Source of the DNA: a virus | Virus record (IMG/VR): IMGVR_UViG_3300043449_000492 | Location: 96,001 to 160,000 of that record | Length of the DNA stretch: 64,000 nucleotides | Reading direction: 5' to 3' (one strand) | Shown here: in pieces, positions 1 through 42,217 of the stretch | How positions within the stretch are numbered: position 1 is the first letter of the stretch | Layout of the letters: each line of letters starts with the position of its first letter | Program-made: the position numbers and the translations under genes | The notes under the pieces: generated by a model | What the model saw: only the letters and a program-made list of their open reading frames with translations | Told to the model about the DNA's origin: nothing | Database searches by the model: none

Positions 1-374
1 TCGATTCATATAGAAAAGAGTATTTTGATCTTAACATAACACCAAATCCTGGTGGCATGTTACAGCATGAGCAACTCTGTGAGGAGTTTGAAAAAAAGTT
101 TGTTGTTCCCTATCATGATGATCGAGTGATAGACTACTTTATGCAGTTCGATTGGTATGACCTAAATAAACCATATCCGAAGAACAAAGTGATTGACGCT
201 TTTCCAGAGTTTCAACAAATCAAGGTAAGACGACATGAGAACCTGCAACTTGCAGCAGGTATACCGTCTCACTTTGAGAAACTGCTTGACAATCCTGAAG
301 TAAACGTATATAATAGAAAAAGAGTAATGGATCTCATTCGAGATTGGAATGACATGGGAGATACGCTGTTTTGA
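1..374 (+). CDS. Asparagine-synthetase-like ATP-dependent amide ligase, C-terminal part (5' truncated)
   Basis: Frame is open from the window start. 'VVPYHDDRVIDYF...K' resembles the PfLD motif of the Asn synthase C-terminal domain. Coupled to the C5-MTase and CmoA-like genes. Confidence 0.5.
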   Translation, partial: DSYRKEYFDLNITPNPGGMLQHEQLCEEFEKKFVVPYHDDRVIDYFMQFDWYDLNKPYPKNKVIDAFPEFQQIKVRRHENLQLAAGIPSHFEKLLDNPEVNVYNRKRVMDLIRDWNDMGDTLF

Positions 375-1600
375 AATATGCACCTTATACCGTTGAAGAC
401 GTAAAGAAGGCATCTGCCCAGAATAAGTTTACAGTTATTAGCTGTTTCGCTGGTGGAGGTGGTAGTTCGACTGGCTATCGTCTAGCTGGCGGAAAGATTC
501 TTTTAATCAATGAATTTGTTGAATCTGCAATCGAATCCTACAAAGCGAACTATCCTGACACTCCTGTTCTTGTTGATGATATCAAGAAATACACTGGTCA
601 AGACTTTCTCGACATGGCAAAGATTAAAGCTGGAGAGCTAGACATTCTAGATGGTTCTCCACCATGTTCTGCATTTTCTATCGCAGGTAAGCGTGAGAAA
701 GGTTGGGCTGGTGCCGAACTAGATACTCGCCGTGCCTATTTTGATGATGATGGTGAGATTGTTCAAGAAGGTGAGCTAGTCGTCAAGGAAGGCATTAAGC
801 TTTATTCTGATGGCAAGCAAGTAGAAGCAATTGAAGACCTGTTCCATGAGTTCATTCGTGTAGCTGCTGATATCAAGCCTAAGGTTATTGTTGCTGAGAA
901 CGTGAAAGGTATTACGTTCGGCGAAGCAAAGGGTAAGCTACATGAGTTTATTAAAGCGTTTGAAGATATTGGATATCAGGTAACGTATCGAGTGCTTAAT
1001 GCTGCTGACTATGGCACACCACAAGCAAGAGAGCGAACAATCTTTATTTGTGTTAGAGACGATATAGCTGATGCTGTTGGCTTGAACTTCCTGACACTTG
1101 AAAACATCTTTCCTGATAAGACATATAATGAGCATGTTTCTCTTAAGGAAGCTATTCATGATGTGGTATCTGATCCAGCACAAGAGAAAGAGTTATATGA
1201 TTATGTGCAGAATGGCTTTCAGAAGAAGTGGATTGAAATGCTTCCATTCAATCCTTCTAGGCATATGAAGCCATCTGACAAAGAGTTTATCGCTATCAAT
1301 CCCAAGCGTTCACTTTTCAATATGATTAGACCTGCTCCACATTTGCCTTCTCCAACGATTACACAACGAGGCAATCAGAAGTCAGTGTCTGGTGTATTTC
1401 ACTATGAGAAGAATCGTAAGTTTACTGTACCAGAGCTAAGACGCATCATGTCATTACCTGATGACTATGAGTTAAAAGGTAACTTCGATCAGCAAGCGGA
1501 ACGTATTGGTCGAATGGTCGCACCGAAGATGATGGCAGAAGTTGCAAACGCTATCTATGAAAAAGTATTGAAACCATATAATGAGGCAAACCATGAGTGA
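371..1600 (+). CDS. DNA cytosine-C5 methyltransferase-family enzyme (candidate carboxymethyltransferase)
   Basis: Motif I FAGGGG, motif IV GSPPCSAFS, VI ENV, VIII QARER, IX R..T..ELRRIMSLPDDY; motif X reads GRMV. Confidence 0.93.
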   Translation: MKYAPYTVEDVKKASAQNKFTVISCFAGGGGSSTGYRLAGGKILLINEFVESAIESYKANYPDTPVLVDDIKKYTGQDFLDMAKIKAGELDILDGSPPCSAFSIAGKREKGWAGAELDTRRAYFDDDGEIVQEGELVVKEGIKLYSDGKQVEAIEDLFHEFIRVAADIKPKVIVAENVKGITFGEAKGKLHEFIKAFEDIGYQVTYRVLNAADYGTPQARERTIFICVRDDIADAVGLNFLTLENIFPDKTYNEHVSLKEAIHDVVSDPAQEKELYDYVQNGFQKKWIEMLPFNPSRHMKPSDKEFIAINPKRSLFNMIRPAPHLPSPTITQRGNQKSVSGVFHYEKNRKFTVPELRRIMSLPDDYELKGNFDQQAERIGRMVAPKMMAEVANAIYEKVLKPYNEANHE

Positions 1601-2294
1601 TTATGATTTTACATTTGCACACCGTGACGAAGGCTTTGACAATCACATTGAAAAGTCTATTCGAGGTTATAATTATCTGCATGATGACATTATCAATCTA
1701 TCTCGATACTATGTTGAAGATTGGACAAACGTAGTTGACATTGGTTCTTCTACAGGTAAGACAATCGAGGCAATGGCTATTCAGAACGAACACTTTGCTC
1801 CTTCTGCAACATATGTTGGTGTAGAACTTGCAGAAGGCTTTAGAGTCGAAATGGAAGCCCGCTTTACTCTATTGCGTGAAAGTCTACCAGAGACATTTTT
1901 TGAGTTTGAGTTCGGCGACATTCGTGAATATCTTTTTGATAACTGTTCACTTGTCACTTCTCTATTCACTCTACAGTTTATGCCTCCGAAAGATCGTGAG
2001 AATGTTATTCGTAACATCTATAATGGACTCAATGAAGGCGGTGCATTCATCTTCGCTGAAAAGACTGTAGCTGAAACAGGTCGATTCCAAGACATGTTCA
2101 CATTTACCTACTATGACTATAAGCGTAAGAATTTCACTGAGAAAGATATCATGCAAAAGGAAGTCACGCTTCGTAACATGCTCAAGCCAAACACATGGGC
2201 AGAGATTGAAGACATGCTACGTTCCGCAGGTTTCAAGAAAGTCCAGCCTTTCTGGCAGAACTTTCTTTTTGTTGGTGCAATCGCCATTAAGTAA
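1593..2294 (+). CDS. CmoA-like carboxy-SAM synthase / class I SAM-dependent methyltransferase
   Basis: FDNHIEKSIRGY, DIGSSTG, LFTLQFM, GGAFIFAEK and AGFKKVQPFWQ parallel the CmoA motifs. ATG at 1593 follows GAGG. Confidence 0.8.
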   Translation: MSDYDFTFAHRDEGFDNHIEKSIRGYNYLHDDIINLSRYYVEDWTNVVDIGSSTGKTIEAMAIQNEHFAPSATYVGVELAEGFRVEMEARFTLLRESLPETFFEFEFGDIREYLFDNCSLVTSLFTLQFMPPKDRENVIRNIYNGLNEGGAFIFAEKTVAETGRFQDMFTFTYYDYKRKNFTEKDIMQKEVTLRNMLKPNTWAEIEDMLRSAGFKKVQPFWQNFLFVGAIAIK

Positions 2295-2349
2295 AGGACA
2301 AGTATTCGTGCAGTATTTCAACTTTAATAAACTTGAGAATTACTTTGAT

Positions 2350-2475
2350 ATGCTTACATCGTTCTGGATATTCTTCTGCGTTGTAAGTATTGTCTGGATT
2401 CTAGCTTCACTATACTACCATACTACTAAAGACCTTCGCCTGCGACATTCTGACGCACCCAAAAAGCGGGATTGA
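2350..2475 (+). CDS. Small membrane protein, hypothetical
   Basis: One hydrophobic helix with a basic tail; ATG at 2350. Confidence 0.4.
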   Translation: MLTSFWIFFCVVSIVWILASLYYHTTKDLRLRHSDAPKKRD

Positions 2476-2478
2476 CCC

Positions 2479-2507
2479 TTGTATTCCTTAGCGACAGGTG
2501 CTATACT
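2479..2507 (+). promoter_or_regulatory. sigma70-type early promoter
   Basis: TTGTAT-N17-TATACT; spacer TCCTTAGCGAC is shared with the promoter at 41221. Confidence 0.6.
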
Positions 2508-2541
2508 GCATCTATCGTTGAACAAGTGAAAGGAACTTTAT

Positions 2542-2781
2542 ATGTCGAATTCCAATGCCGCTCTCCTCGCCCGTATTGCGGAACTTGAAGCTCAGGTTGC
2601 TAAGACTCCTAAGAAGGCTCTTTCCCTGAAGGTTTCCCAGAAGGGTGCGGTTTCTCTCTATGGCATGGGTCGCTTCCCCGTCACTCTTTACGCTTCCCAG
2701 TGGGAGCAGCTTCTGGGTGAAGCGGAAAAGATCAAGGAATTCCTTGACAAGAACAAGGAAACGCTCGCTGTCAAGGCGTAA
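2542..2781 (+). CDS. Conserved hypothetical protein (LKVSxKGxVSxYGxGRFPVTLY family)
   Basis: AAGGA RBS, strong codon bias, own promoter and terminator. Confidence 0.8.
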   Translation: MSNSNAALLARIAELEAQVAKTPKKALSLKVSQKGAVSLYGMGRFPVTLYASQWEQLLGEAEKIKEFLDKNKETLAVKA

Positions 2782-2794
2782 GCTGTTGAAAGAT

Positions 2795-2820
2795 AGGGGC
2801 TTTCGAGCCCCTTTTCTTTT
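2795..2820 (+). terminator. Rho-independent terminator
   Basis: AGGGGCT-TTCG-AGCCCCT followed by TTTCTTTT. Confidence 0.85.
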
Positions 2821-2824
2821 GCCT

Positions 2825-2850
2825 TGCAATTCCTATCGAATGCTCTATAA
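2825..2850 (+). promoter_or_regulatory. sigma70-type early promoter
   Basis: TTGCAATTCC...TATAAT upstream of the CobT-like gene; coordinates approximate. Confidence 0.6.
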
Positions 2851-2878
2851 TAAGTGAACAATCGTGAAAGGGCACTTT

Positions 2879-5146
2879 ATGCATTCCACTAATTCTTCCA
2901 ATTCTATTCTCGCCAAGCTTCTAGCTACCGAGAATATTACGGTTCAGCATCAGCCTGGTATTAAGACCGCTATGTTTGACCTTAAGAACCGTGTTCTTAT
3001 GCTTCCCGTCTGGCAAGAGATTACCGAGAACCTTAAGCATCTGCTTATTGGTCATGAAACTGGTCACGCTATTGACACCCCGACTGCCGAAGAATATAAG
3101 GCAGCTTATGAGGGTATTGCCAAACGTGTCTTTGGTGATGAAACCACTTCCCGTCTTACTCGCACGGTTGCTGGCTTTCTTAATGTTATCGAGGACGCTC
3201 GTATCGATAAGCGTCAGAAGCGTCGTTACCCCGGGCTTCGCAAGGACTATCTTCTTGGCTATCAGGAGCTTATCGACCGTGACTTCTTCGGTACGAAGGG
3301 TCGTGACATTAATTCCATGAATTTTATCGACCGCATGAATATCTATTTTAAGGGTGGTAACATTCATGATAATATCGAGTTTACCCCTGCCGAAAAGGCT
3401 TTTCTCAAGCGGGTAGAAAATCTTGAACTGTTTGATGAGACGATTATCCTCACCGAAGAGGTTTATCGTTTCTGTAAAGACCAAATCGAGAATGATATGC
3501 ATATCGATATTGGTATTGGTGAGCCTGAGGAGGGCGAAAGTGATGATGACGGTTTTGATTGGGACGGTGACAGCGATGGCGCTGGTGACTTTGATTCGGA
3601 TGAAGGCTCCGAGTCCGATTCCGATGAAGGTGAGGGTGAAGGCGAGAACGAATCCGACGACGAAGGCGGACTAACTCGTGGTTCGGGTGACCTCGGCGCT
3701 AATAGCAGCGGCAAGTCCAATGCCTCTTCTCATGGTTCTGATGGCGCTGGTGATACCAGTGTTACTGCTCCCGAGTCCGAGACCGATCGTGTCTGGGAAC
3801 AGAAGCGTGAGGAACTGGTTCGTGACTCCAATGCAGACTATATCTATCTGAATATGCCTGAGTTTAACTATGCTCAGAATGTTCACGATTATAAGAAAGT
3901 CCTGAACGATTGGCGTTCCGAACTTGCTATCGGCAAGGCTTCTTATTCTCGTTCCCTCAAGCAGGAAGCTTATGACTTTGCCCGTCGTGAAATGATGGAG
4001 TGGAAGGCTAAAGAAAAGGACACCATCTCGTTCCTTGTCAAGGAGTTCGAGCAGCGTAAGAGTGCTGAGATTTATTCTCGCATTTCGATTGCCAAGACTG
4101 GTGTTATCAATACCAATAAGCTTCATTCATATCGTTACAATGACGATATCTTCCGTCGCTTGACCGTTATCCCTGAGGGTAAGAACCATGGCTTTGTTAT
4201 GTTTCTTGACTGGTCAGGCTCGATGGATTATAACTTGAAGCATACCCTTAAGCAGCTCTTTACGCTTGTTCTCTTTTGCAAGCAGATCCAAGTGCCGTTC
4301 GAGGTGTATGCATTCAAGGACTCGGATGATAGTGGCAAGCCGTCTCCGTGGAATCACGGGAGTGCCGAGAACAGCGTTAACTTCGGTTACCTGACGATCC
4401 GCCAGTTCCTGTCGTCCAAGATGAATATTGCCGAGCTTAATGACGCCATGTCGTTTCTCTGGGCTATGGGTCATGGCTATCGTCTCAACAGCGATCCGCT
4501 CTCTGGCACTCCGCTCAACGAGGCAATCTTTGTTGCTCCGAAGATTGTTAATGACTTCCGTGCTAAGTATAAGCTTGAGGTTGTTAACACGATCATCCTG
4601 ACCGATGGCGAGTCCAATGGTTCTATGGGTCTGGTGAATGACACCGTTCCTCATCAGAGCTATTCGCTCACTGGCGGTATGCGTAAGCGGTATTTCTTCT
4701 ATAATGACAAGGAGACTGGTAAGACCGTTGAGTATGATCCGCATGGTTGGGGTCAGGCTGGTCAGTCTAACACCAACGTCCTGCTTCGTTTGCTCAAAGA
4801 AAAGACTGGTTGTAATCTAATCGGTTTCTTCCTGTTCGGTGAGTCCTGGCGTACCTTCACTTATCGCTTTAATCTTACTGGCAACTATGAGTATCTGCAG
4901 AAAGTTACCAAGTTCTGGAAAGAGAACAAGTTCTATCCTGTCAAGAGTGAAGGTTATGATGATTATTTCGTCATTGATACCCGTGCCCTTGCTGTGACCG
5001 ATAACAACCTGGAGATTGATACGTCCAAGTCGACCAAACAGATGGCGAAAGCCTTCTCCAAGTTTGCGTCGAAGAAAGCCGTAAATCGTGTTCTCCTGCG
5101 TAATTTCATCGATCACGTTACAGGAAAAGCAAAGAAGGTAGCGTAA
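2879..5146 (+). CDS. CobT-like protein: HEXXH metallopeptidase-like N-terminus, acidic linker, VWA domain
   Basis: HETGH, NVIEDARI, D/E-rich linker, MIDAS motifs LDWSGSM, GTPLNEA and ILTDGE. Confidence 0.85.
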   Translation: MHSTNSSNSILAKLLATENITVQHQPGIKTAMFDLKNRVLMLPVWQEITENLKHLLIGHETGHAIDTPTAEEYKAAYEGIAKRVFGDETTSRLTRTVAGFLNVIEDARIDKRQKRRYPGLRKDYLLGYQELIDRDFFGTKGRDINSMNFIDRMNIYFKGGNIHDNIEFTPAEKAFLKRVENLELFDETIILTEEVYRFCKDQIENDMHIDIGIGEPEEGESDDDGFDWDGDSDGAGDFDSDEGSESDSDEGEGEGENESDDEGGLTRGSGDLGANSSGKSNASSHGSDGAGDTSVTAPESETDRVWEQKREELVRDSNADYIYLNMPEFNYAQNVHDYKKVLNDWRSELAIGKASYSRSLKQEAYDFARREMMEWKAKEKDTISFLVKEFEQRKSAEIYSRISIAKTGVINTNKLHSYRYNDDIFRRLTVIPEGKNHGFVMFLDWSGSMDYNLKHTLKQLFTLVLFCKQIQVPFEVYAFKDSDDSGKPSPWNHGSAENSVNFGYLTIRQFLSSKMNIAELNDAMSFLWAMGHGYRLNSDPLSGTPLNEAIFVAPKIVNDFRAKYKLEVVNTIILTDGESNGSMGLVNDTVPHQSYSLTGGMRKRYFFYNDKETGKTVEYDPHGWGQAGQSNTNVLLRLLKEKTGCNLIGFFLFGESWRTFTYRFNLTGNYEYLQKVTKFWKENKFYPVKSEGYDDYFVIDTRALAVTDNNLEIDTSKSTKQMAKAFSKFASKKAVNRVLLRNFIDHVTGKAKKVA

Positions 5147-5167
5147 AAACAACGGTTTAGAGGGGGC

Positions 5168-5196
5168 TTGACATTCCTCTCTAAACCAGCTATAAT
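5168..5196 (+). promoter_or_regulatory. sigma70-type early promoter
   Basis: TTGACA-N17-TATAAT, perfect consensus. Confidence 0.85.
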
Positions 5197-5231
5197 GTGT
5201 CATAATCGAAATCGTGAAAGGAATAGATTGT

Positions 5232-6500
5232 ATGGCTAAGTCTAATATGTCCACCCGTGACCAGTTCCTCGATAAGGTTCGTTTCGAGTTCGGAGCTATC
5301 ACTACCATCACCCGTACCCAGGTCAAGCAGGTTTGCGACAAGTATGACCTGTCGTTCCCCACGTGGCTTCGCAAAGATGCCACTCGTCAGGTTGCCCGCG
5401 GTGTGTATGCTCTTACCGAGCATGGCGCTACTCCCGCTGCGCCTGTGACTGCTACCGCTATCAAGGCTGCAAAGTCTAAGGCTCCGAGAGTGTCAAAAAA
5501 GGTCGCTCCGACCAAGACCGCTAACATTCAGTCGAATGTCCCCGTGGTCGATAGCATCGTGGCTATGGCTTCGACGGTTGCCATGTCGGCTCCGTCCACT
5601 TCAGCTTCGGCCGATGTTTCGCTCGTTCCTGAAAAGTCTTCGGGATACGTTCCGTTCGGTAACTTTGCCGACGTTCGTTCCATTATCAAATCTCGTAAGT
5701 TTTACCCGGCTTACATCACTGGTCTTTCTGGTAACGGTAAGACGATGATGGTCGAGCAGGTTTGTGCTGCTGAAAAGCGTGAATGTGTCCGAGTTAACGT
5801 GACCATTGAGACCGACGAAGATGATCTTATCGGCGGCTTCCGTCTTGTTGACGGACACACCGTGTGGCAGGACGGTCCTGTTATCATCGCCATGCAGCGT
5901 GGTGCGATCCTGCTTCTCGACGAGGTTGATCTTGGCTCTAACAAGCTTATGTGTCTCCAGCCTGTCCTCGAAGGCAAGTCGGTCTTCCTTAAGAAGATTA
6001 ATCGTTTGGTTCATCCTGAGGCAGGGTTCAACGTCATTGCGACTGCGAACACCAAGGGTAAGGGTTCCGACGATGGTCGCTTCATTGGCACCAACGTAAT
6101 GAATGAGGCGTTCCTTGAGCGTTTCAGCATCACGATGGAGCAGGAGTACCCTGCGGCTAAGACCGAGACGAAGATCCTTAACAATGTTCTAGGTGCTTCT
6201 AACATTGAAGCTAAGGAGTTTGTTGAGAAGCTTGTCACCTGGGCTGATGTTATCCGTAAGTCATTCTACGAGGGTGCTCTTTCGGAAATCATTTCGACCC
6301 GTCGTCTCGTCCATATCTGCGAGGCTTATGCTATCTTTAACCAGAACCGTGTGAAGGCAATTGAGCTGTGCCTTAACCGCTTCGACGTGGACACCAAGAA
6401 TGCTTTCATGGAACTCTATAAGAAGGTCGATGAGACCGTTGATCCGACTGCTGTTTCGGAATCGGAAGCAGCCCCTGTGGGTGAAGAGGTTGCTTTCTGA
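5232..6500 (+). CDS. cobS: CobS-like MoxR AAA+ ATPase
   Basis: Walker A GLSGNGKT, Walker B LLLDEVD, IATANTKG, NEAFLERF, ISTRRL. Confidence 0.9.
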   Translation: MAKSNMSTRDQFLDKVRFEFGAITTITRTQVKQVCDKYDLSFPTWLRKDATRQVARGVYALTEHGATPAAPVTATAIKAAKSKAPRVSKKVAPTKTANIQSNVPVVDSIVAMASTVAMSAPSTSASADVSLVPEKSSGYVPFGNFADVRSIIKSRKFYPAYITGLSGNGKTMMVEQVCAAEKRECVRVNVTIETDEDDLIGGFRLVDGHTVWQDGPVIIAMQRGAILLLDEVDLGSNKLMCLQPVLEGKSVFLKKINRLVHPEAGFNVIATANTKGKGSDDGRFIGTNVMNEAFLERFSITMEQEYPAAKTETKILNNVLGASNIEAKEFVEKLVTWADVIRKSFYEGALSEIISTRRLVHICEAYAIFNQNRVKAIELCLNRFDVDTKNAFMELYKKVDETVDPTAVSESEAAPVGEEVAF

Positions 6501-6568: not shown

Positions 6569-6597
6569 TTGACATTCCCAGAATACCCGTGTATAAT
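6569..6597 (+). promoter_or_regulatory. sigma70-type early promoter
   Basis: TTGACA-N17-TATAAT (TTGACATTCC variant). Confidence 0.8.
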
Positions 6598-7810: not shown

Positions 7811-8400
7811 TTATAGGTCTTGTTGGTTACATCGGAGCCGGCAAGGGAACAGTCCGTGATATTCTTGTGCGAGAGCATGGGTATCACGGATTCGCCTTTG
7901 CCGATGCATTGAAAGATGCTGTTGCACAAATCTTCGTTTGGCCTCGTCAGCTTCTCGAAGGTGACTCTAATGCCTCTCGCTCGTTTAGAGAGAAGGTAGA
8001 CCCTTGGTGGTCACATAAGCTAGGTTATGAAGTCACGCCTCGTCTCATTCTACAAAAGATGGGAACCGAAGCTTGTCGCCATAACATTGCAGATAATATC
8101 TGGATTGCAGCTTTAGAAAAACGCATTCACGGATATGAAGATATCGTTATATCAGATTGTCGTTTTCCGAATGAAATCGATTTTGTTCGGAGTGTCGGCG
8201 GTGTTGTGTTTCAGGTGTGTAGAGGTCCTGCACCAACAGAAGCAGAGCTGGCTAAGATGCATGTATCAGAAACTGCTTGGAGAGAGTATCCTGTCGATAT
8301 GGTTATTGACAACAACGGAACTCTTGCTGACCTTAAAAGGAATGTCGATATAGCATTGACACACTGTAAAAAATCGTCTATAATGCATCATCCTGTTTAA
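7807..8400 (+). CDS. Deoxynucleoside monophosphate kinase (T4 gp1-like)
   Basis: IIGLVGYIGAGKGTV, FADALKD, TPRLILQKMGTE, SDCRFPNE, HVSE. Confidence 0.9.
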   Translation: MIIGLVGYIGAGKGTVRDILVREHGYHGFAFADALKDAVAQIFVWPRQLLEGDSNASRSFREKVDPWWSHKLGYEVTPRLILQKMGTEACRHNIADNIWIAALEKRIHGYEDIVISDCRFPNEIDFVRSVGGVVFQVCRGPAPTEAELAKMHVSETAWREYPVDMVIDNNGTLADLKRNVDIALTHCKKSSIMHHPV

Positions 8401-11356: not shown

Positions 11357-11815
11357 ATGAGCCTATTTCCTGAACTTGATGAAGATGATATTGTATATGC
11401 TATGGGAAAGTTTGCAAACATGACTAGCACAGGTAAAACTTTTGAAAAGAAGATTGCTGAACATCTAAGAAACAAGTATCCTAACAATGCTATTAGGGAA
11501 CAAGTTAAAGCTGGAAAGCATATTGGTAGTAACAAGAAAAATTATGTTGTTGACATTTTGTTCAATCATGATACACTAGTATCCGCTAAGTTTCAGGGAA
11601 CTGGCGGAACTGCAGAACAGAAGATTATGTTTGAAATGAATACACTTCAGAAGTTGTGTGATAAGGATGGATATAAGAAAGCCTATCTTGTCTATGATGG
11701 AGCAGGTCTAACTATGACTGAACAGTATAAGTCGGATGAAATGAAAGAGTATGTTCGTGCGCCGTCTGTGATATTTGTATCGTTCGATGAATTTAAGGAA
11801 ATGAATATTGCTTAA
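11357..11815 (+). CDS. PD-(D/E)XK restriction-endonuclease-like protein
   Basis: TGKTFE, VDILF, VSAKFQGTGGTAEQK; overlaps the Dam gene. Confidence 0.65.
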   Translation: MSLFPELDEDDIVYAMGKFANMTSTGKTFEKKIAEHLRNKYPNNAIREQVKAGKHIGSNKKNYVVDILFNHDTLVSAKFQGTGGTAEQKIMFEMNTLQKLCDKDGYKKAYLVYDGAGLTMTEQYKSDEMKEYVRAPSVIFVSFDEFKEMNIA

Positions 11816-12659
11816 CTCTCCTCTAAAGTGGGTCGGTGGTAAACAGTCTATTCTATCTGCCATACTACCTTACATAGAAAGTCCAAACACCTTTGTGGAA
11901 CCTTTTATAGGTTCTGCAACTGTGTCTCTTAATGTCAATGCCAATAGATATCTAATCAATGACATGAACTACGATTTGATTAATCTATATCAACATGTAA
12001 TCAATAACTGTAATCAAATCGTGGAGTTATCTAAGCCATACTTTGAAAATATGACAAGTGAAAGATACTATGATATTAGAGATAGATTCAATTCTTTACA
12101 ATCAAACTGTATTGAAAGAGCTGCTTTGTTTTTGGTTCTGAATAAATTTGCATTCAATGGAGTATGTCGTTACAACTCTAAAGGTTTGTTCAATGTACCT
12201 TACTGCAAACGAAGCACGGCAGGTTTTCCTTTAAATGAACTAATATCCTTTAGTAAACATTTTGGTAGCAAAGAACATCAACTTTTTCATGGAGACTTTT
12301 CTAATGCTATGTTATATGCTAACTTGATAGAAGGTGATGTTGTCTATTTTGATCCGCCTTATCTCCCTTCGGACGACTTTGAAAGCAACTTTACAAAATA
12401 TACCAAAGAAAATTTCGAAACACAGCAACATCAACAAATAGTCGATTTGTGTCTAGAGCTAAACACTAGAGGTGTTGTTTGTTTGGTTTCTAATCATATG
12501 ACTGCTCAAACAGAACAGCTTTATAGCGAATGTGATAAAATAGTTGTTATACCCAAAAAGAGATTACTGGCTGCTAACAAGAAAAATAGAAAAGAGATTA
12601 ACGAGATTCTGGCTATATACGGTAACGTCAAAGTGAGTGGAACCCTATTCGATGACTGA
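11808..12659 (+). CDS. dam: DNA adenine methyltransferase (Dam / D12 class)
   Basis: SPLKWVGGK, FVEPFIGSA, FNGVCRYN..G.FNVPY, YFDPPY. Confidence 0.92.
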   Translation: MLNSPLKWVGGKQSILSAILPYIESPNTFVEPFIGSATVSLNVNANRYLINDMNYDLINLYQHVINNCNQIVELSKPYFENMTSERYYDIRDRFNSLQSNCIERAALFLVLNKFAFNGVCRYNSKGLFNVPYCKRSTAGFPLNELISFSKHFGSKEHQLFHGDFSNAMLYANLIEGDVVYFDPPYLPSDDFESNFTKYTKENFETQQHQQIVDLCLELNTRGVVCLVSNHMTAQTEQLYSECDKIVVIPKKRLLAANKKNRKEINEILAIYGNVKVSGTLFDD

Positions 12660-14084: not shown

Positions 14085-14610
14085 TCTAGATCCTAGATTC
14101 TGTGGGGCTATAACTCAAGTCATAGGACAGCAAAAGCTTTTCATTAATAATGTCCTTGCTGCTGTAGAAGGAGATATAAACTCACATAATGGTCTAGGAG
14201 CTTTAATCTCGCAATCACCAGGAACAATTATCGTTCAGGGTAAGAAGATGATTGTATCTATGATGGACGGATCTGCTCCAGATCAGCTTGGAATCATAAC
14301 ACATGTTACTAATCTACCAACTCCAGCACAAGGTTCACAAAATTGCTTTGCATATGGTGGAGCGGGATCATTTGGTGGTGGTCTAGGCATACCAGGATTG
14401 TCTGGGTTTCCTGGTATAGGTGAGATTATGCAACTAGGTTCGCAAGCTGTAGGACAAGTATCTAAGTCCGTCAATCAAGGTGGAGGAAGCGGCTTGCTTA
14501 CCATGAATAATATGACTCCACAAACCCAATCATTGTTGACAGCCGGCTCAACTGTTGTAAGTGCTAATACAGGAAAAACATTTACATTTTCCTCATTTAT
14601 TTCTGGTTGA
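14065..14610 (+). CDS. PAAR-like spike-tip protein with C-terminal extension
   Basis: MPGVFR..D...CGA, LFINNVLAAVEGD..SH, PAQGSQNCFAY. Confidence 0.55.
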   Translation: MPGVFRNLDPRFCGAITQVIGQQKLFINNVLAAVEGDINSHNGLGALISQSPGTIIVQGKKMIVSMMDGSAPDQLGIITHVTNLPTPAQGSQNCFAYGGAGSFGGGLGIPGLSGFPGIGEIMQLGSQAVGQVSKSVNQGGGSGLLTMNNMTPQTQSLLTAGSTVVSANTGKTFTFSSFISG

Positions 14611-14692
14611 CATATGTGAAAGTTTACTATATAATAACAGACGATACCAAGAGGTGTCGTTCCTTATTTCTCGCTAACTATAGGAGAACAAC

Positions 14693-15304: not shown

Positions 15305-15886
15305 ATGCAATACACTTTTGTTGATGGTCCCCTCGGTGAAGATTACGAATCCCCTCCAGTTCATGTCTCAGAAGAAAATCTAAGAAAGTATGGAACAGGT
15401 AATGTGTTTGTTGAAACAGGCACGTATCTTGGCGAAACTGTAGATTTGGTTCTTAAGACAAAGCTATTCAAGACCATTCATACAATCGAACTAAATGATA
15501 CGCTTTATAATGACGCAGTTGCAAAGTATAAGAATGAAAAGATCGTCAAGCTATGGCATGGTGACTCTATTGATTCTCTCAAGGATATTGTATCAAAGCT
15601 AAAAGAGCCTGCAACATTCTGGCTAGATGCTCATGCGTCTGGAGAACTTGTTGGTGGTAAGTCTGGCGGTTCTCCTGTTCTCGATGAGCTAGACATTATT
15701 GCTTCTTCTCCAATCAAGACACATACAATCATTATTGACGATTGCCGCCTGTTTGGTTCTGCTGAATGGTCCTTTGTCAAGAAGGAAGATGCAATTGAAC
15801 GCATCATGAAGATCAATCCAGATTACAAGCTTCATTATCTTGATGGTCATATTCGCAATGACGTTCTGTGGGCAACAGTAAAGTGA
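15305..15886 (+). CDS. SAM-dependent methyltransferase-like protein
   Basis: FVETGTYLG, GDS, FWLDAH, IIDD.R.F. Confidence 0.7.
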   Translation: MQYTFVDGPLGEDYESPPVHVSEENLRKYGTGNVFVETGTYLGETVDLVLKTKLFKTIHTIELNDTLYNDAVAKYKNEKIVKLWHGDSIDSLKDIVSKLKEPATFWLDAHASGELVGGKSGGSPVLDELDIIASSPIKTHTIIIDDCRLFGSAEWSFVKKEDAIERIMKINPDYKLHYLDGHIRNDVLWATVK

Positions 15887-16614
15887 AGCTAACAATCGAA
15901 AGACCTGTTACGGTTATTACTCCTACGATTGGTAAGCCTGAACTAAAAAAGGCTATCGAATCAGTTAAGAATCAGACATACAAATGTAAACATCTTGTGA
16001 TTATTGATGGACTAGAACATGCTAGAAATGTTCCTGGTTCAGATGGTGATTATTTACAAGTTTGTTATACTCCCGAGAACACAGGAGCTAATGGTTACTA
16101 CGGTCATAGAATCTATGCGGCATATCCTCATCTTGTCAATTCGGACTATGTCCTTTTTCTTGATGAAGATAATTGGTATGAACCAAATCACGTTGAAACC
16201 CTAATCGAGACAATTGAACAGAAGAACCTAGACTTCTCATATTCGCTTCGTAAGATTTTTGATAAGAATGAAAACTATCTTATTGACGATAACTGTGAAA
16301 GTCTAGGCAAGTGGGAAATCTTTATGTCTCGTTCTTCACCTCATGGTAAGCAGTATCTAGTTGATACATCATCTTACTGCTTCAAGCGAGAGTTTATCCA
16401 ACAGGCTTGTCATCTATGGCATTCTGGCTGGGGTGGTGACCGTCGCTTCTTTCATATTGTGAAAGATCAAGCAAAGTATGATACAAATGGACTCTACTCT
16501 CTTTGCTATCGTCTCGACGGTAATCAAGGATCTGTCACTAAAGAGTTTTTTGAATCAGGTAATAAGACACAAGAGCAATACTTTGGAGGGAACTATCCGT
16601 GGAAAAAGACGTAA
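15883..16614 (+). CDS. Glycosyltransferase family 2
   Basis: VTVITPT, SV.NQTY, VIIDG, LFLDEDN. Confidence 0.85.
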   Translation: MKLTIERPVTVITPTIGKPELKKAIESVKNQTYKCKHLVIIDGLEHARNVPGSDGDYLQVCYTPENTGANGYYGHRIYAAYPHLVNSDYVLFLDEDNWYEPNHVETLIETIEQKNLDFSYSLRKIFDKNENYLIDDNCESLGKWEIFMSRSSPHGKQYLVDTSSYCFKREFIQQACHLWHSGWGGDRRFFHIVKDQAKYDTNGLYSLCYRLDGNQGSVTKEFFESGNKTQEQYFGGNYPWKKT

Positions 16615-17492
16615 TCATAGGTGGAGCATCAGGCTATACATGGGATCAACTCAAGTATTGGGTTAACTCGATTAAGAAGACAGACTTCAAAGGTGACATT
16701 GTTCTAGTCGTTACCAATATGAATAAAGAAACGATTGATAAGCTTACTGACGAAGGTGTAATGCTTTATGCATATGGTAAGCAAGACGAAAAGGGTAACA
16801 TCACTAATCAGTCTCAGAATGCCCCACATGTCGAGCGTTTCATTTTCATTTGGGACTTTCTAAGAAAGCATAAAGACACATATCGTTATGCAATCGTAAC
16901 AGATACCAGAGACGTTATCTTTCAGAAGAATCCAAGTGACTTCCTAAAGAAGAATCTTTCCGCTAATTCAATCGTTGCTTCCTCAGAAGGATTGGAATAT
17001 AAGGACGAGCCTTGGGGTAATAAGAATTTGTTTGACACATTCGGTCCATTAGTATATAATGAAATGTCTGGTGAGTTGATACACAATGTAGGAACGATTG
17101 CAGGATATAGTGAAGAGGTTCGTGATCTGCTTCTACAGCTATTCTATCAGTCAGTGAATCGTCCTATTCCAATTGTTGATCAGGCAGTATATAACTTTCT
17201 AATCAATCTTTATCCTCTAAGAGGCGAAGTTCTTAGAACTACTAATAAAGAAGATTGGGCAGTTCAGCTAGGAACAACCGAAGCTGCAATCAAAGCTGGA
17301 GCTGGTGATATTGGTCAGATTATTAAAACCAATCCAGAAATGATCGAAGGATATCGTAAAGCATATCAAGACATTCAGCCAGTGATTGAAAATAATCATC
17401 TTGTAACAAACGGCAAGAATACATATCACATTGTCCATCAGTGGGATCGTGTTCCTGAGATTAAGAAAATTGTGGAGCGTCTATATGGCTGA
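16599..17492 (+). CDS. GT-A fold glycosyltransferase-like protein
   Basis: ERF, TDTRDVIFQ.NP, DQAVYN, IVHQWDR. Confidence 0.7.
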   Translation: MEKDVIIGGASGYTWDQLKYWVNSIKKTDFKGDIVLVVTNMNKETIDKLTDEGVMLYAYGKQDEKGNITNQSQNAPHVERFIFIWDFLRKHKDTYRYAIVTDTRDVIFQKNPSDFLKKNLSANSIVASSEGLEYKDEPWGNKNLFDTFGPLVYNEMSGELIHNVGTIAGYSEEVRDLLLQLFYQSVNRPIPIVDQAVYNFLINLYPLRGEVLRTTNKEDWAVQLGTTEAAIKAGAGDIGQIIKTNPEMIEGYRKAYQDIQPVIENNHLVTNGKNTYHIVHQWDRVPEIKKIVERLYG

Positions 17493-18183
17493 TGGTATCT
17501 TTTTCATTAACAATGCTCTAAGAGCTAATAAACGCTTATCAGTCTTTAATGATGAAGAACGATATGAGCAGACTTTAGAAACATTAAAGTCTATTGATAA
17601 ATATTGCCCTGATAATGTTAAGATTATCTTTGACATGTCACCTGAGCCTGTTAATGAAGAATACCTAAAGGTTATTGGAAATTGGAACAACACCTGGTTT
17701 CTTGATATGGGTCAGCATGAATATGTTAAGATGTATTCCTTGCATGGTCTTCGTTCACTAGCAGAGACATATGCATTCATGGGTGTGCTTGATTGGTTTA
17801 CTAACTCATCTATCGGTGTCAAGGCTAAGCGTATCTACAAGCTATCAGGTCGTTATCAATTGACTGATAACTTTGTTCTAGATGCGCCTGAATATAAAGA
17901 TGCTTTTGTGTTTGCAGAAGCATTAGAGTCTTGGATGGATGATAATGTTAAGAAGACCTTAGAACTTGATCGACTTTATCGTCTTCGGCTTTGGCACATG
18001 GACTATAACTTGCTTGATACATTTCGTGAGGAACTACCCTATATATTTGCAGAATGTTCAAACAATAACATTGATATTGAACATGCTTATTACAAGTATC
18101 TTCATGACTATAAGGTTGTAGAAGTTCCTAAGATAGGCGTGACTGGACATATTGCACCAAGTGGAGAATTTATTGATGAGTGA
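17485..18183 (+). CDS. Hypothetical protein of the glycan island (GT-like)
   Basis: ERYEQTLETLKSI, KRIYKLSGRY, DIEH. Confidence 0.6.
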   Translation: MADGIFFINNALRANKRLSVFNDEERYEQTLETLKSIDKYCPDNVKIIFDMSPEPVNEEYLKVIGNWNNTWFLDMGQHEYVKMYSLHGLRSLAETYAFMGVLDWFTNSSIGVKAKRIYKLSGRYQLTDNFVLDAPEYKDAFVFAEALESWMDDNVKKTLELDRLYRLRLWHMDYNLLDTFREELPYIFAECSNNNIDIEHAYYKYLHDYKVVEVPKIGVTGHIAPSGEFIDE

Positions 18184-19378
18184 TTGCCAACCAATTAAGA
18201 ATTGTATTGCATGTGGTAGTGATATGTTATCTGAGGTACTTGATCTTGATACCCAGCCGCTCGCAAATGATTACAAGAACACAAAGGATGAAGTGCAGCA
18301 GGAGTTTCCCCTTGCTATTAATCGCTGCACAGTATGTGATCATGTCCAACTAACACATCAAGTCAATCCAGAATTGATGTTCAAGAATTATGCTTATGTG
18401 TCTGGAGTTTCGCAAACTCTTAAAGATTGGTTCACGTGGCTTATATCTTATACTAATCAGACCTTTGATGGAACAATCAATAACACACTAGACATTGGTT
18501 GCAACGACGGATCCATGCTTGATGCATGGAGTAACAATGTTGAAACATACGGTGTCGATCCTGCAGAGAATCTTCATTCTATTTCAACTGGTAAAGGTCA
18601 CAAGGTTCATTGTGGATTCTTTTCAGGTAAAGAGTTTGAAGGAAAGACCTTTGATGTTATCACTTGTCTAAATGCATTTGCACATAATGCCAATCAGTTA
18701 GAGCTACTTAAGAACGTCAAGGAAGTTATGCATGATAACTCAGTTTTAATTTGCTCAACATCACAAGCAGACATGATTCGTAATGGAGAGTTTGATACAA
18801 TCTACCATGAGCATGTTTCTTTCTATAACATTCTATCTGCGAAGAGAATTAGTGAAAGAGCTGGTCTAAATCTAATTGATGTTGTTAAGCATCCTATTCA
18901 TGGTAATAGTTTTATCTTTTTCATGTCCAAGAATAAAAAGAATCAACATTATATTGACGCTATGTTAGAGATTGAACAGCTAACAGGTTTGCATGATGAT
19001 AAAGTCTATAAGGAGTTTGCTGAGAAAGCTTATAACACAGCTAACACGTTTGGCATCACCATTCGTTCTTTTCGAGGACAATATCCAATCATAGGTTATT
19101 CTGCACCCGCAAAGGGTATGACCCTTATGAACTTTGCTAAAGAAGGTCCAGATGTTATCTTTGAAGATACTATTCAGAAGCAGGGCAAGTTTACTCCTGG
19201 TCTAGGTATTCCAATCATTGCTCCAGACTACAAAGCTTATGAAAATGAAGAAAGAGTTGTTTGGGTTGTTCTAGCTTGGAATGTGTATGATGAGATTGTG
19301 GCTAAGATCAAATCTAATCGACCTGGCAAAAATGATATCTTTGTAAGATACTATCCAACATTTGAGGTGATTACATGA
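18176..19378 (+). CDS. Zn-binding nucleotide-sugar C-methyltransferase
   Basis: CIACGS...C..C.HVQL, LDIGCNDG, GVDPA, FDTIYHEH, GYSAPAKG, LAWN. Confidence 0.88.
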   Translation: MSDCQPIKNCIACGSDMLSEVLDLDTQPLANDYKNTKDEVQQEFPLAINRCTVCDHVQLTHQVNPELMFKNYAYVSGVSQTLKDWFTWLISYTNQTFDGTINNTLDIGCNDGSMLDAWSNNVETYGVDPAENLHSISTGKGHKVHCGFFSGKEFEGKTFDVITCLNAFAHNANQLELLKNVKEVMHDNSVLICSTSQADMIRNGEFDTIYHEHVSFYNILSAKRISERAGLNLIDVVKHPIHGNSFIFFMSKNKKNQHYIDAMLEIEQLTGLHDDKVYKEFAEKAYNTANTFGITIRSFRGQYPIIGYSAPAKGMTLMNFAKEGPDVIFEDTIQKQGKFTPGLGIPIIAPDYKAYENEERVVWVVLAWNVYDEIVAKIKSNRPGKNDIFVRYYPTFEVIT

Positions 19379-20244
19379 AGCCAGTTTTGAAAGTAGGATT
19401 TGTTGATTACTTCAATCCAGTCGATGAGTTTTTCACAGACATTCTTTCAGAAGATTTTGAGGTAGTTAGGGATGATAATAATCCCGACTATCTTTTTTTC
19501 TGTGACGAGACGTTTGGTGAGCGTAATAAGTTGTATGATCCTAATAAGGTGAAAAAGATTTTCTACACCGGAGAGAATCGTCGTCCCTGGGGATATTCAG
19601 CACATCATGCCGTTTCATTTGATCACTTAGATAGTCCACAGTTTTATCGGCTTCCATTATATGCACTAGAGAACTGGGTCAATCAAAAGAAGCTTGGTTG
19701 GAAGAACGTCAAAGACTTTAAGAGAACTATGAAAGCTGACGACAAGGAAGGCTTCTGTTCTTTTGTTGTTCGTAATGGAGGTTGTAATGAGCGTAATGAA
19801 ATTTTTAACATACTCAATTCTTACAAGACGGTTGACTCTGGTGGACCTCTATTCAATAACGTCGGCGGTCCGATCGATCAAGATGGCTTCAACTCTCATG
19901 TAACGAAGACCGACTTTATTAAGAAGCGCAAGTTCCACATTGCATATGAGAATAGCATGTGGCCGGGATATGTAACGGAAAAGATTCTTCATGGCTTTCT
20001 AGGTGAGTCTATTCCAATCTACTGGGGTTCTCCTTGCGTAGAAATGGATTTTAATCCTGACGCTTTCATTAGTCGTCATAAGTTTAAATCAACTGCAGAG
20101 ATGGTCGAATTTATTCAGCTTGTGGACACACACGATTCGTTGTATAATGAAATCATGGCTCAACCTCTATTTAACAAGAACAATCGATTCCTAGACTTTA
20201 GGAACTTTAGATATTGGTTCAAGGAGAATGTATATAAGCCATGA
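19375..20244 (+). CDS. alpha-1,3/4-fucosyltransferase-like glycosyltransferase (GT10)
   Basis: IFYTGEN, KFHIAYENS..PGYVTEKI, IPIYWGS. Confidence 0.88.
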   Translation: MKPVLKVGFVDYFNPVDEFFTDILSEDFEVVRDDNNPDYLFFCDETFGERNKLYDPNKVKKIFYTGENRRPWGYSAHHAVSFDHLDSPQFYRLPLYALENWVNQKKLGWKNVKDFKRTMKADDKEGFCSFVVRNGGCNERNEIFNILNSYKTVDSGGPLFNNVGGPIDQDGFNSHVTKTDFIKKRKFHIAYENSMWPGYVTEKILHGFLGESIPIYWGSPCVEMDFNPDAFISRHKFKSTAEMVEFIQLVDTHDSLYNEIMAQPLFNKNNRFLDFRNFRYWFKENVYKP

Positions 20245-21038
20245 AGAAGATCGGTTATTATCATGTGTTTCTAACAGAAAACGAATCCACTTGGCTTAGT
20301 ATGCTCATGGAGCAATACAAGGTCATGGAAGATTCTGGCTTGTTTGAAGCATTAGATGAGTTTCATCTTGTCTGTGTAGGAAGAACAGATGAGCAGTTTG
20401 ATAAGGCATTATACTTTACAGGTCTTTACTATCCATCTGTAATGCAGATTCGTGTAATAAATCCTGTTGAAGATAGTAACCTTATTGAATCAATTAAAAC
20501 TCAGCCAAATGTTCTTATGACCGAAAATATTACCATGCGCCTAATATACGATAGAGTAAAGTCTACTAATGAAGAAGAATACATTCTTTATTTTCATACT
20601 AAAGGCATTACATCTACTCTAAGACATTTTCAAAATAGCTACGAGGAGATTAATCTTTTCAGGACTTATCAATACTGGAGACATTATCTCAACTATGGTG
20701 TTTTAGAGAAGTGGGAAGAATGTGTTAGAGCATTAACATTCGGTTATGATATTGCAGGTATCAATCATCAGTTATATCCTCATTCACATTATAGTGGAAA
20801 CTTCTGGTGGGCAAAGTCAAGTCATCTTGCATCGTTGCCTGATCCGGGAACATATGATTGGTGGGAAGAAGTCAAGGCTAATGCACATGATCCTTGGTTG
20901 AAGCAAGCTGACAATCGTTATGCTGATGAGCAATGGCCATGCTCTAAGAAAGATGGAAGATACTATAACGTAGAAAAGGGTATTCCAAATCCTGCTAATG
21001 TTTACACACCAAGAAAGGTATATGTAACATGCGATTAG
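20241..21038 (+). CDS. GT-like hypothetical protein
   Basis: ILYFHTKGIT, WRHYLNY, HYSGNFWWAKS. Confidence 0.65.
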   Translation: MKKIGYYHVFLTENESTWLSMLMEQYKVMEDSGLFEALDEFHLVCVGRTDEQFDKALYFTGLYYPSVMQIRVINPVEDSNLIESIKTQPNVLMTENITMRLIYDRVKSTNEEEYILYFHTKGITSTLRHFQNSYEEINLFRTYQYWRHYLNYGVLEKWEECVRALTFGYDIAGINHQLYPHSHYSGNFWWAKSSHLASLPDPGTYDWWEEVKANAHDPWLKQADNRYADEQWPCSKKDGRYYNVEKGIPNPANVYTPRKVYVTCD

Positions 21039-21730
21039 CAATTGCTTTCTTTGGAATTCTCTATGGTAAGGGTGGTAAGACTGGTTGCGATAGAGACTTT
21101 AGACATTGTTGGCCTAACATTGAGCGTATGGTTGTGCAACCGTATCGAGACGCTGGTCATGATGTAAAGTTATTCTTCTCTAGCTATCCTTTTGAAGACA
21201 AAGCTATCGAACAAGAGTTTTACGATATGGTAAAGCCTGACAAGATTGTATTTTCGCAGCTTGCAGGTTCCGATGCATTCACTTCTAAGACTGCATTATT
21301 TCAGACATTCATGAATGACTCCAGTGTAGATACCATCATATATACTAGAGCGGATATGCACTGGAACAAAAAGTTCATAGACACTAATATTAATTATGAT
21401 AGGTTTAACTTTCTATTCAAAGAAAGAGACTGGTGGCAATCACACATGTATGCCTGTGATAACCTCTACATCTTTCCACAACATATGTCAGAAGCAACTC
21501 TTAGAGCAATGTTGGACGATCACGCTTCTCCTGCTAAGTCGATCCATAAGCATGAGTTACCTAGATTTCTTATGAGATATATCAATCCTGATCAGATAAA
21601 CTTTATGTCTAAAGAACATCAATATAGTGATATGAATAACTTTTACACACTTTGTCGAAACGAACTAAGACCAGAGTGTAGAGGTGAGTTTATGCATCCT
21701 GACGTAGCAGAAAGGTTTGGTTACGAATGA
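21029..21730 (+). CDS. GT-like hypothetical protein
   Basis: MRLAIAFFG, IIYTRAD, CDNLYIFP; related in style to 22362..23048. Confidence 0.6.
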   Translation: MRLAIAFFGILYGKGGKTGCDRDFRHCWPNIERMVVQPYRDAGHDVKLFFSSYPFEDKAIEQEFYDMVKPDKIVFSQLAGSDAFTSKTALFQTFMNDSSVDTIIYTRADMHWNKKFIDTNINYDRFNFLFKERDWWQSHMYACDNLYIFPQHMSEATLRAMLDDHASPAKSIHKHELPRFLMRYINPDQINFMSKEHQYSDMNNFYTLCRNELRPECRGEFMHPDVAERFGYE

Positions 21731-22359
21731 ATATTATATTTGAAGTAGGTGCAAATCAAGGACAAGATACAGAACAGTTTCTAGCTGATCCTAATAATGA
21801 AGTTTATAGTTTTGAACCTGTACCGGATTTGGCACATTTTCTTTGGCAGAGATTTGGTGACAATCCTAGATTTCATCTTTCGACATGTGCTATTGATATG
21901 GATAATGGATGGAAGCCATTTAACATTTCAAAGAATGGTGATTGGGGCTGTTCAAGTCTTCATAGCTTTGCCAAGAACATTAACGAGACATGGCCAGGCC
22001 GTGATGACTTTGCCTTTCAGCAGACTATTCAGAATGTAATGTGTATGCGTCTTGACACATTCATGGACATTTATAATATTGACCATATTGACTATATTCA
22101 CATTGATGCACAGGGTAATGACTTTAGAGTTATTCAGTCTCTTGGTACCAAGATTGATTCAGTTAAAGCTGGTGTTGTTGAGGTTGCTAATAAGGTTGAG
22201 CTATATGATGTTCCTGATAATCATATTACAACTGTGCTTCCTTGGCTGGAACATCGTGGCTTCTCTGTTAGAGCGGAGTTTGATGGTGTAGGAAAGCCTT
22301 ATGTTGGTGCATGTGCTATCAATGGAAATGAGGTCAATCTATTCTTTCATAGGCCATAA
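21727..22359 (+). CDS. FkbM-family methyltransferase
   Basis: EVGANQG, VYSFEP, IDYIHIDAQGND. Confidence 0.88.
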   Translation: MNIIFEVGANQGQDTEQFLADPNNEVYSFEPVPDLAHFLWQRFGDNPRFHLSTCAIDMDNGWKPFNISKNGDWGCSSLHSFAKNINETWPGRDDFAFQQTIQNVMCMRLDTFMDIYNIDHIDYIHIDAQGNDFRVIQSLGTKIDSVKAGVVEVANKVELYDVPDNHITTVLPWLEHRGFSVRAEFDGVGKPYVGACAINGNEVNLFFHRP

Positions 22360-22361
22360 TA

Positions 22362-23048
22362 ATGAAGATTGCATTATGTTTAAGTGGTCGTCCAAGATCA
22401 TATCGAAAAGGTTTTGAATATCATAAGCGTAATCTATTAGATAAACATGATGTGGAAGTTTTTGTTCACACATGGCAAGATATAGAAGATGATGCTTTTC
22501 AGTTTCTTGATTATGAATATGATCCTGTTTCAATAACAACGTCCCCCACATTTTCAGATGATGCTTTTATAAACTATCCTGTCGAGCATCCTGACTGGCC
22601 GCCGAAGAATGCCATTCATATGATGTATGGGGTATTCAAGGCAAATGAACTAAAGAGAGAACGTGAATTAGTAAATGGCTTCCGTTATGATATTGTCATC
22701 CGTTCTCGTTTTGATTTCGCATTGAATCGAGAAATTGATTTTGAGGTAGAGCCTGGGAAAGTATATGTTCCAAATGATTATATCAAAGGTCGTATTGCTC
22801 CTAACGGAATCATTTGTAATGACCAGTTTGCTGTTGGTGATAGTCCGACAATGGATCTATACTCTAACACATTCTGGAACATTGATAGAGCAGTAGCTTT
22901 AGGTGCACCTGTGATTGGTGAAGACTTGCTTTCTGTCAATCTACAAATCGCTGGCATCATCAATGAGAAGATGGTCTATATAGATATGAACCACCCATTC
23001 CCACCGGGTAAGTATAACAATACTCCACATTCGTTATTGAGAGATTAA
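22362..23048 (+). CDS. GT-like hypothetical protein
   Basis: KIALCLSGRPRS, VFVHTW, YDIVIRSRFD, NDQFAVG. Confidence 0.65.
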   Translation: MKIALCLSGRPRSYRKGFEYHKRNLLDKHDVEVFVHTWQDIEDDAFQFLDYEYDPVSITTSPTFSDDAFINYPVEHPDWPPKNAIHMMYGVFKANELKRERELVNGFRYDIVIRSRFDFALNREIDFEVEPGKVYVPNDYIKGRIAPNGIICNDQFAVGDSPTMDLYSNTFWNIDRAVALGAPVIGEDLLSVNLQIAGIINEKMVYIDMNHPFPPGKYNNTPHSLLRD

Positions 23049-23050
23049 TC

Positions 23051-41444: not shown

Positions 41445-41448
41445 ATTT

Positions 41449-42211: not shown

Positions 42212-42217
42212 TACAAT

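Follow-up and report, generated by a model that had tools for sequence, protein, structure and literature searches.

A very likely CmoY-CmoX-CmoA cassette for DNA cytosine hypermodification in an uncultured T4-like phage

The cassette and its published counterpart

The window analysed here, a stretch of 64,000 nucleotides (nt) corresponding to bases 96001-160000 of a 169,069-bp IMG/VR record (IMGVR_UViG_3300043449_000492) with direct terminal repeats and rated 100% complete, very likely holds a CmoY-CmoX-CmoA DNA hypermodification cassette of the kind described in Synechococcus phage S-B43. The phage carrying it is an uncultured T4-like phage with a genome of ~169 kb. The cassette comprises three translationally coupled genes, placed head to tail on the + strand in Y-X-A order: cmoY, encoding a putative amide ligase; cmoX, encoding a homologue of DNA cytosine C5-carboxymethyltransferases; and cmoA, encoding a homologue of carboxy-S-adenosylmethionine (Cx-SAM) synthases. 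It sits at the left edge of the window, and the upstream DNA (locus L002, genome 86001-98400) was included in the analysis.

A description of the S-B43 system appeared in December 2025 (Yang et al., Nat Commun 2025;17:281; PMC12783734). SpCmoA makes Cx-SAM from S-adenosylmethionine (SAM) and prephenate with a kcat of 2.33 per s, versus 0.23 per s for E. coli CmoA; SpCmoX places the carboxymethyl group on cytosine C5 at GpC, the wild type accepting Cx-SAM only and not SAM, and its R350, at the position of HhaI Asn304, contacts the Cx-SAM carboxyl group; SpCmoY, with ATP and glycine, converts 5-carboxymethylcytosine (5cxmC) into the glycine amide 5gcxmC, which is carried by S-B43 virion DNA, the modified share being 75% of the GC sites (PMC12783734). 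The same study listed 5,615 candidate CmoX proteins (SPPC plus the R350 arginine) in IMG/VR v4, UniProtKB and MGnify, together with 4,257 CmoA and 2,251 ligases on contigs with a candidate CmoX, and reported ligase clusters with differing pocket residues (PMC12783734). The chemistry has been known since that publication, and the window is a new example of it, not a discovery.

CmoX and the arginine of motif X

The window's CmoX is 50% identical to SpCmoX (E 6e-128) and matches the Pfam family DNA_methylase (PF00145, E 9e-54). Its best solved-structure match is SpCmoX with Cx-SAM (PDB 8YF3, E 2e-108); HaeIII and HhaI are far weaker sequence matches (~1e-19), and M.MpeI (4DKJ) is a weak one (E 3e-7). 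The AlphaFold2 model of CmoX (predicted local distance difference test, pLDDT, 85) resembles 8YF3 most closely in fold, with a TMt of 0.94 and a root-mean-square deviation of 2.4 Å, versus a TMt of 0.71-0.77 for HhaI and HaeIII.

The residue at the motif X Asn position is Arg381 (codon CGA, 1511..1513, + strand, within ERIGRMV), which HMMER alignments place on R350 of SpCmoX/8YF3 and on the Asn of M.HaeIII IGNAV. This Arg, invariant among the 34 relatives aligned, is the predicted Cx-SAM carboxylate-binding residue. The same relatives show no variation in FAGGG (residues 26-30), SPPC (96-99), ENV (176-178) and QxRxR (218-222; Q218, R220 and R222), nor in F26, E48, F49, D70, C99 and R381, the equivalents of SpCmoX F25, E47, F48, D69, C98 and R350; all the Cx-SAM-contacting residues reported for SpCmoX are kept in the window's protein. 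Both of the sequence features by which CmoX is defined in PMC12783734 are present: the C5-methyltransferase motifs I, IV, VI and VIII, and SPPC together with an Arg at the R350 position; GpC specificity is given there as a property of SpCmoX and not as part of the definition. A first-pass annotation of the window had pointed to the catalytic PC and ENV motifs and to the Arg codon at 1511-1513 in ERIGRMV; the motifs are there and invariant in the 34 relatives, the codon is that of residue 381, and its alignment to the motif X Asn is borne out by both HaeIII and SpCmoX. No second C5-methyltransferase was found in the genome, CmoX being the only one.

CmoA and CmoY

CmoA is 57% identical to SpCmoA over its full length (E 3e-93), and it matches the E. 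coli CmoA structure 4GEK (E 1e-23) and PHROG 4752 (E 8e-65), a family labelled 'tRNA methyltransferase' in PHROGs. Its best NCBIfam match is TIGR00740, the CmoA equivalog, with 110.5-110.7 bits against a cut-off of 193.3 bits; since the biochemically proven SpCmoA also falls below it (115.6 bits), this cut-off delimits the bacterial tRNA-pathway enzymes and not the activity. The equivalents of the SAM-binding residues Tyr39, Asp62, Gly64, Ser66, Asp117-Ile118 and Phe137 of E. coli CmoA are kept. The position of E. coli Arg199, which makes a 2.7-Å salt bridge to the Cx-SAM carboxylate (PMC3663124), is Glu in the window's CmoA, and an Arg stands four residues later, where E. coli has Glu203. The first-pass annotation had read this correctly, as 'QKE' with an Arg four residues on, and had taken it as a doubt on CmoA activity. 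That doubt is resolved: SpCmoA has the same Glu-for-Arg199 and Arg(+4) arrangement, in a K-E-x-x-L-R block invariant in five phage CmoAs, and because this active enzyme shares both the substitution and the sub-threshold TIGR00740 score, neither of them speaks against activity. The swap resembles the shift of an Arg by one turn of the helix, on the same side, and may be a clue to the ~10x faster turnover of the phage enzyme compared with that of E. coli. Neither CmoB, chorismate mutase nor ParB_N was found in the genome; having no chorismate mutase, the phage must obtain its prephenate from the host.

CmoY (270 amino acids, aa) matches the Pfam family Asn_synthase (PF00733, E 4.5e-14), carries the PP-loop SGGIDS at residues 25-30, and is 50% identical to SpCmoY (237 bits, E 1e-82). 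The edge threshold of the ligase network in PMC12783734 corresponds to ~30% identity, which places CmoY in the SpCmoY sequence cluster. The AlphaFold2 model (pLDDT 95) matches only the synthetase domains of 1MC1, 1CT9 and 6GQ3 (TMq 0.70-0.76), that is, the synthetase halves of beta-lactam synthetase and asparagine synthetases, and no glutaminase domain was found in the protein by sequence or fold comparison. CmoY is, judging from these matches, a predicted stand-alone PP-loop, AMP-forming amide ligase. Of the positions conserved in the CmoY clade, all 14 of the invariant and 23 of the 24 near-invariant ones are common to SpCmoY. CmoY diverges faster than CmoX: after one match at 91%, the next relatives are at most 68% identical.

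Homology, conserved residues, fold, gene coupling and promoter conservation, all observed here, underlie the CmoY-CmoX-CmoA reading; that the window's copies are active, which motif they target, which amine is attached, when this happens and that it counters restriction is inferred. In the scheme proposed, CmoA would turn SAM and host prephenate into Cx-SAM; Arg381 of CmoX, replacing the motif X Asn, would pair with the Cx-SAM carboxylate; CmoX would flip out the cytosine, Cys99 would attack C6, and the carboxymethyl group would pass to C5 to give 5-carboxymethylcytosine in phage DNA; CmoY would adenylate the 5cxmC carboxyl and join it to an external amine, most likely glycine, to give 5-glycylcarboxymethylcytosine; and the modified cytosine would most likely shield the phage DNA from host restriction. 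That the phage makes its own Cx-SAM and writes 5cxmC had been put forward in the first-pass annotation, and finds support in the proof of both steps for homologues 50-57% identical. It had also suggested that the ligase amidates or conjugates the carboxyl; conjugation to an amine (glycine in S-B43) stands, and the simple amide does not.

Gene boundaries and promoters

The three overlapping open reading frames (ORFs) are as the first-pass annotation had described them; for cmoA, listed as 1581-2294, a start at 1593 fits better. Only the 3' part of cmoY lies in the window (1..374, + strand; the 5'-open frame covers 3-374); the full gene is L002:9562-10374, its start lying 439 nt upstream of window base 1, with GGTGAG upstream of its ATG. 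The gene cmoX (371..1600, + strand) encodes 409 aa from a TTG start that shares the TTGA with the cmoY stop; an ATG at 378-380 was rejected as its start, being out of frame. For cmoA (1593..2294, + strand) the ATG at 1593 (233 aa) is more likely to be the start than the ATG at 1581 (237 aa), because of a GAGG Shine-Dalgarno sequence 7 nt upstream, the 8-nt overlap with the cmoX stop (the sequence ATGAGTGA overlaps this stop) and the 233-aa product, the CmoA of relatives being called at 227-235 aa. Directly 3' of cmoA, a small ORF (2308-2475) encodes a peptide with one membrane span and a basic tail (MLTSFWIFFCVVSIVWILASLYY...), and relatives also have a small gene at this place.

A perfect sigma-70-type promoter (TTGACA-17-TATAAT, 12/12 consensus match) is predicted at 286..314 (+ strand); it falls within the final 90 nt of cmoY and precedes the cmoX start by 57 nt. 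In the window and in 6/6 relatives, a consensus promoter stands 33-85 nt ahead of cmoX (perfect in six of these seven, 11/12 in one), whether the upstream gene is cmoY or gp46 and with differing spacers; none was found upstream of cmoX in S-B43 or S-CRM01. The genome holds 13 perfect TTGACA-N16-18-TATAAT sites on the + strand versus 0.11 expected, those within the window being located at 286-314, 5168-5196, 6569-6597, 8356-8384, 14607-14635, 17032-17060, 32780-32808, 41221-41248, 41571-41599 and 48053-48081, all on the + strand. Several of the 13 have a common TTGACATTCC start. These 13 sites are probably the early promoter set of the phage, fitting T4-type early promoters. The cmoX-cmoA pair would form an early unit with its own promoter, and another perfect promoter, 1.4 kb upstream (genome 94605-94633), would drive cmoY. 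Since cmoX-cmoA would be read from its own consensus early promoter, the cofactor and the writer would be made early in infection.

CmoX insertions and relatives of the cassette

A search of 5.8 billion proteins gave thousands of CmoX matches; among the best 120, from which the identities are taken, each is at least 64% and up to 91% identical to the window's protein, far closer than S-B43. These relatives fall into a ~408-aa and a ~380-aa form. The difference is an insertion in the catalytic loop, about 28-30 aa long and situated after motif IV (PC) and before motif VI (ENV) (residues ~113-142; 707..796, + strand), which is conserved in the ~408-aa relatives, missing from the ~380-aa ones and shorter in SpCmoX; it is modelled by AlphaFold2 as short beta strands, with low to moderate confidence. 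A second insertion, of 6 aa, is found in the target-recognition domain right after the conserved PSPT(I/L)T (QRGNQKSVSG vs ASG--GL); the whole clade has it and SpCmoX does not.

The Y-X-A order, with overlapping stops and starts and downstream of gp47/gp46-type nuclease genes, recurs in related marine and lake contigs. The contigs of two relatives carry cmoX and cmoA without cmoY, and have unknown genes alongside: a 180-aa gene between cmoX and cmoA (L093:5211-5753) and a 344-aa gene after cmoA (L094:6001-7035). These two genes are possible alternative tailoring enzymes.

Comparison with other systems

The window and S-B43 share the three homologous genes (50-57% identical), SPPC and the carboxylate-binding Arg, all the Cx-SAM contact residues, the Glu-for-Arg199 with Arg(+4) in CmoA, a short ligase without glutaminase, and a T4-like myovirus genome without CmoB. 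They differ in gene order (A-Y-X in S-B43, Y-X-A here) and in genomic setting, the cassette following gp47/gp46 recombination nuclease and FtsH genes here and primase-helicase/MazG genes in S-B43. The window's CmoX differs further by its ~28-aa catalytic-loop and 6-aa recognition-loop insertions, and a consensus sigma-70-type promoter stands ahead of its gene; the phage itself is without psbA and has an alphaproteobacterial-type tmRNA and FtsH. The window is not S-B43 itself, protein identity being only 50-57%, and megablast of positions 1-6500 returned just one 77% stretch, in a cobS-like gene of two Synechococcus phages.

Another T4-like aquatic phage, Synechococcus phage S-CRM01, carries a CmoA-CmoX pair with no adjacent cmoY, its methyltransferase being 47.5% identical to the window's. 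The orders Y-X-A here, A-Y-X in S-B43 and A-X in S-CRM01 indicate that the cassette moves and is reshuffled among T4-like phages. The methyltransferase of Methylophilales phage Melnitz, also T4-like and aquatic, is 38% identical (L009:4010-5227) and keeps SPPC, with no cmoA adjoining; it reads ARIGLMV and is not a CmoX by the definition of PMC12783734, because of the Leu at the Arg/Asn position.

The engineered M.MpeI N374K (Kohli laboratory; cited in PMC12783734) likewise has a basic residue for the motif X Asn, accepts Cx-SAM and writes 5cxmC. It is a Lys variant of a CpG enzyme and still uses SAM, whereas the Arg in the window is natural, belongs to a separate phage lineage and is accompanied by a dedicated Cx-SAM synthase and by a ligase. 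The E. coli CmoA/CmoB pathway (4GEK, 4IWN, 1IM8; PMC3663124), which makes cmo5U34 in tRNA, has the CmoA fold and the SAM-binding residues in common with the window. The phage, in contrast, has no CmoB, and its predicted acceptor is DNA cytosine instead of tRNA 5-hydroxyuridine (ho5U); in CmoA, Arg199 and Glu203, which stand one helical turn from each other, have exchanged charges, Leu replaces Asn132, and Glu-Leu replaces Asp89-Asn90.

The first-pass annotation pointed, rightly, to a recent report of a similar cyanophage system and expected novelty in the host group and target rather than in the chemistry. The cyanophage system being already published, novelty does shrink to the host group and possibly the target site or the amine. 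What remains new is the likely non-cyanobacterial host, the clade-specific CmoX insertions, which may change specificity, the conserved promoter ahead of cmoX, and the Arg/Glu swap common to phage CmoAs.

Alternative readings

Several points weigh against an S-B43-type cassette that ends in 5gcxmC at GpC. Identity to the proven enzymes is only ~50%. Glycine is named as the most likely amine on overall family membership of CmoY. The likely promoter at 286..314 is a consensus match and not a mapped transcription start. The site specificity of CmoX may differ from GC, given catalytic-loop and recognition-loop insertions unlike SpCmoX. Site avoidance in the genome also has to be considered: CGCG occurs 4 times versus 120 expected, AACGTT 0 versus 55, AGATCT 1 versus 38, GTAC 130 versus 377, GACGTC 2 versus 19 and GCATGC 3 versus 23. 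The four CGCG sites are at genome 7509, 65895, 70031 and 101397 (window 5397), and the count is zero in the loci of two relatives (L004 and L007). The avoidance of the GC-containing CGCG and GCATGC is odd if every GpC is protected, and may reflect partial modification, a different target or other pressures; across the genome, GpC has an odds ratio of 1.07, and palindromes are depleted whether or not they contain GC.

It is rather unlikely that, with the writer and cofactor steps unchanged, CmoY ligates another amine (another amino acid or a polyamine) and/or that the CmoX site is not GpC, so that the product is an undescribed relative of 5gcxmC. The clade-conserved insertions of 6 aa in the recognition loop and ~28 aa in the catalytic loop of CmoX would fit such a product, as would a CmoY only 50% identical to SpCmoY and diverging faster than CmoX, the ligase clusters with different pocket residues (PMC12783734), and the clade members in which cmoY is missing and unknown genes stand beside cmoX and cmoA; however, all of the invariant and nearly all of the near-invariant CmoY positions are common to SpCmoY, and 237 bits would directly link the two ligases at the network threshold of that study.

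The CmoY-CmoX-CmoA cassette would have a quite different purpose if CmoA served mainly translation, supplying Cx-SAM to a host CmoB for cmo5U34 on phage tRNAs, with the methyltransferase an ordinary 5-methylcytosine enzyme. The 23 tRNAs of the window include U34 species of families in which Gram-negative bacteria have cmo5U (Ala-UGC, Pro-UGG, Ser-UGA, Val-UAC and Leu-UAG), and the PHROGs label of the CmoA family agrees with such a role; but the phage lacks a CmoB, cmoA overlaps the stop of a methyltransferase with the Cx-SAM-binding Arg, an Arg with which SpCmoX refuses SAM, and the X-A pairing is kept across the clade with its own promoter. We consider this very unlikely as the main function; DNA and tRNA roles are not mutually exclusive. 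Less probable still is an inactive or decaying cassette making no modification, a reading for which no support was found: all three frames are intact, dozens of relatives (65-91% identity) show no change in the catalytic and cofactor residues, and the CmoX and CmoY AlphaFold2 models are confident.

Host and remaining genome

No psbA/Photo_RC was found in the complete genome, and the DNA polymerase is about equally far from the cyanomyovirus enzymes (51% identity) and from that of Melnitz (47%); assignment as a cyanophage is not supported. A permuted two-piece transfer-messenger RNA (tmRNA) with the tag AANDNAPFEGYALAA is encoded at genome 15071-15454 (L008:1071-1407), ~80.5 kb before the window, and scores 79.8 bits with Rfam alpha_tmRNA (gathering score 50) and 93.8 bits with tmRNA_permuted. 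A full-length FtsH with extracellular, AAA and M41 domains (L002:4878-6719, genome 90878-92719) is encoded between the gp47-like and gp46-like genes. The best 80 FtsH matches in GTDB genomes, from a scan that was pattern-seeded and therefore biased towards sequences having the query's peptides, are from Alphaproteobacteria wherever the title names a class (56-63% identity), a few being labelled only Proteobacteria, Pseudomonadota or 'Bacterium'. At this locus, FtsH is present in the freshwater relative L007 and missing from the marine relatives L004-L006. The lack of psbA and the alphaproteobacterial-type tmRNA and FtsH indicate that the host is probably not a cyanobacterium, and an alphaproteobacterial host appears more likely than a cyanobacterial one. 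The tmRNA is a lead and not proof of the host, because an alpha-type two-piece tmRNA is also found in Melnitz, a phage of OM43 (PMC9004378).

Other genes of the window include a D12-class (Dam-type) N6-adenine DNA methyltransferase (11808-12659, E 1e-55), which makes a second mark on the phage DNA probable; GATC shows moderate depletion (644 versus 822 expected). The tRNA genes are clustered at 41368-46792; one tRNA-Ile was called with a TAT anticodon, and two tRNAs are unusually long, at 92 nt each (Ile, 41449-41540; Tyr, 46299-46390). A large sugar-nucleotide/glycan gene set occupies ~15868-27112 and 53854-57213 (GT2 glycosyltransferase, GT10 fucosyltransferase, sugar C-methyltransferase, UDP-glucose dehydrogenase, epimerase/dehydratase, HAD hydrolase and cytidylyltransferase-domain proteins). 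An acyl-CoA dehydrogenase of 552 aa with all four domains (28269-29927) is an unusual auxiliary gene for a T4-like phage.

Implications

The finding is of confirmatory and ecological value. It assigns the 5cxmC/5gcxmC pathway to a complete genome of 169 kb from an uncultured clade that is widespread, marine and lake metagenomes containing hundreds of CmoX relatives with 65-91% identity. As this clade is without psbA and has alphaproteobacterial signals, the modification is suggested to be frequent far outside the cyanophages. The clade-specific CmoX insertions and the members lacking cmoY are candidates for mapping target motifs and amide diversity. We regard it as unlikely that this abundant marine and freshwater T4-like clade, probably with alphaproteobacterial rather than cyanobacterial hosts, employs its variant CmoX (catalytic loop enlarged, recognition loop altered) and diverged CmoY to write an adduct unlike 5gcxmC in context or amine; if true, the members with unknown genes in place of cmoY may make further undescribed derivatives.

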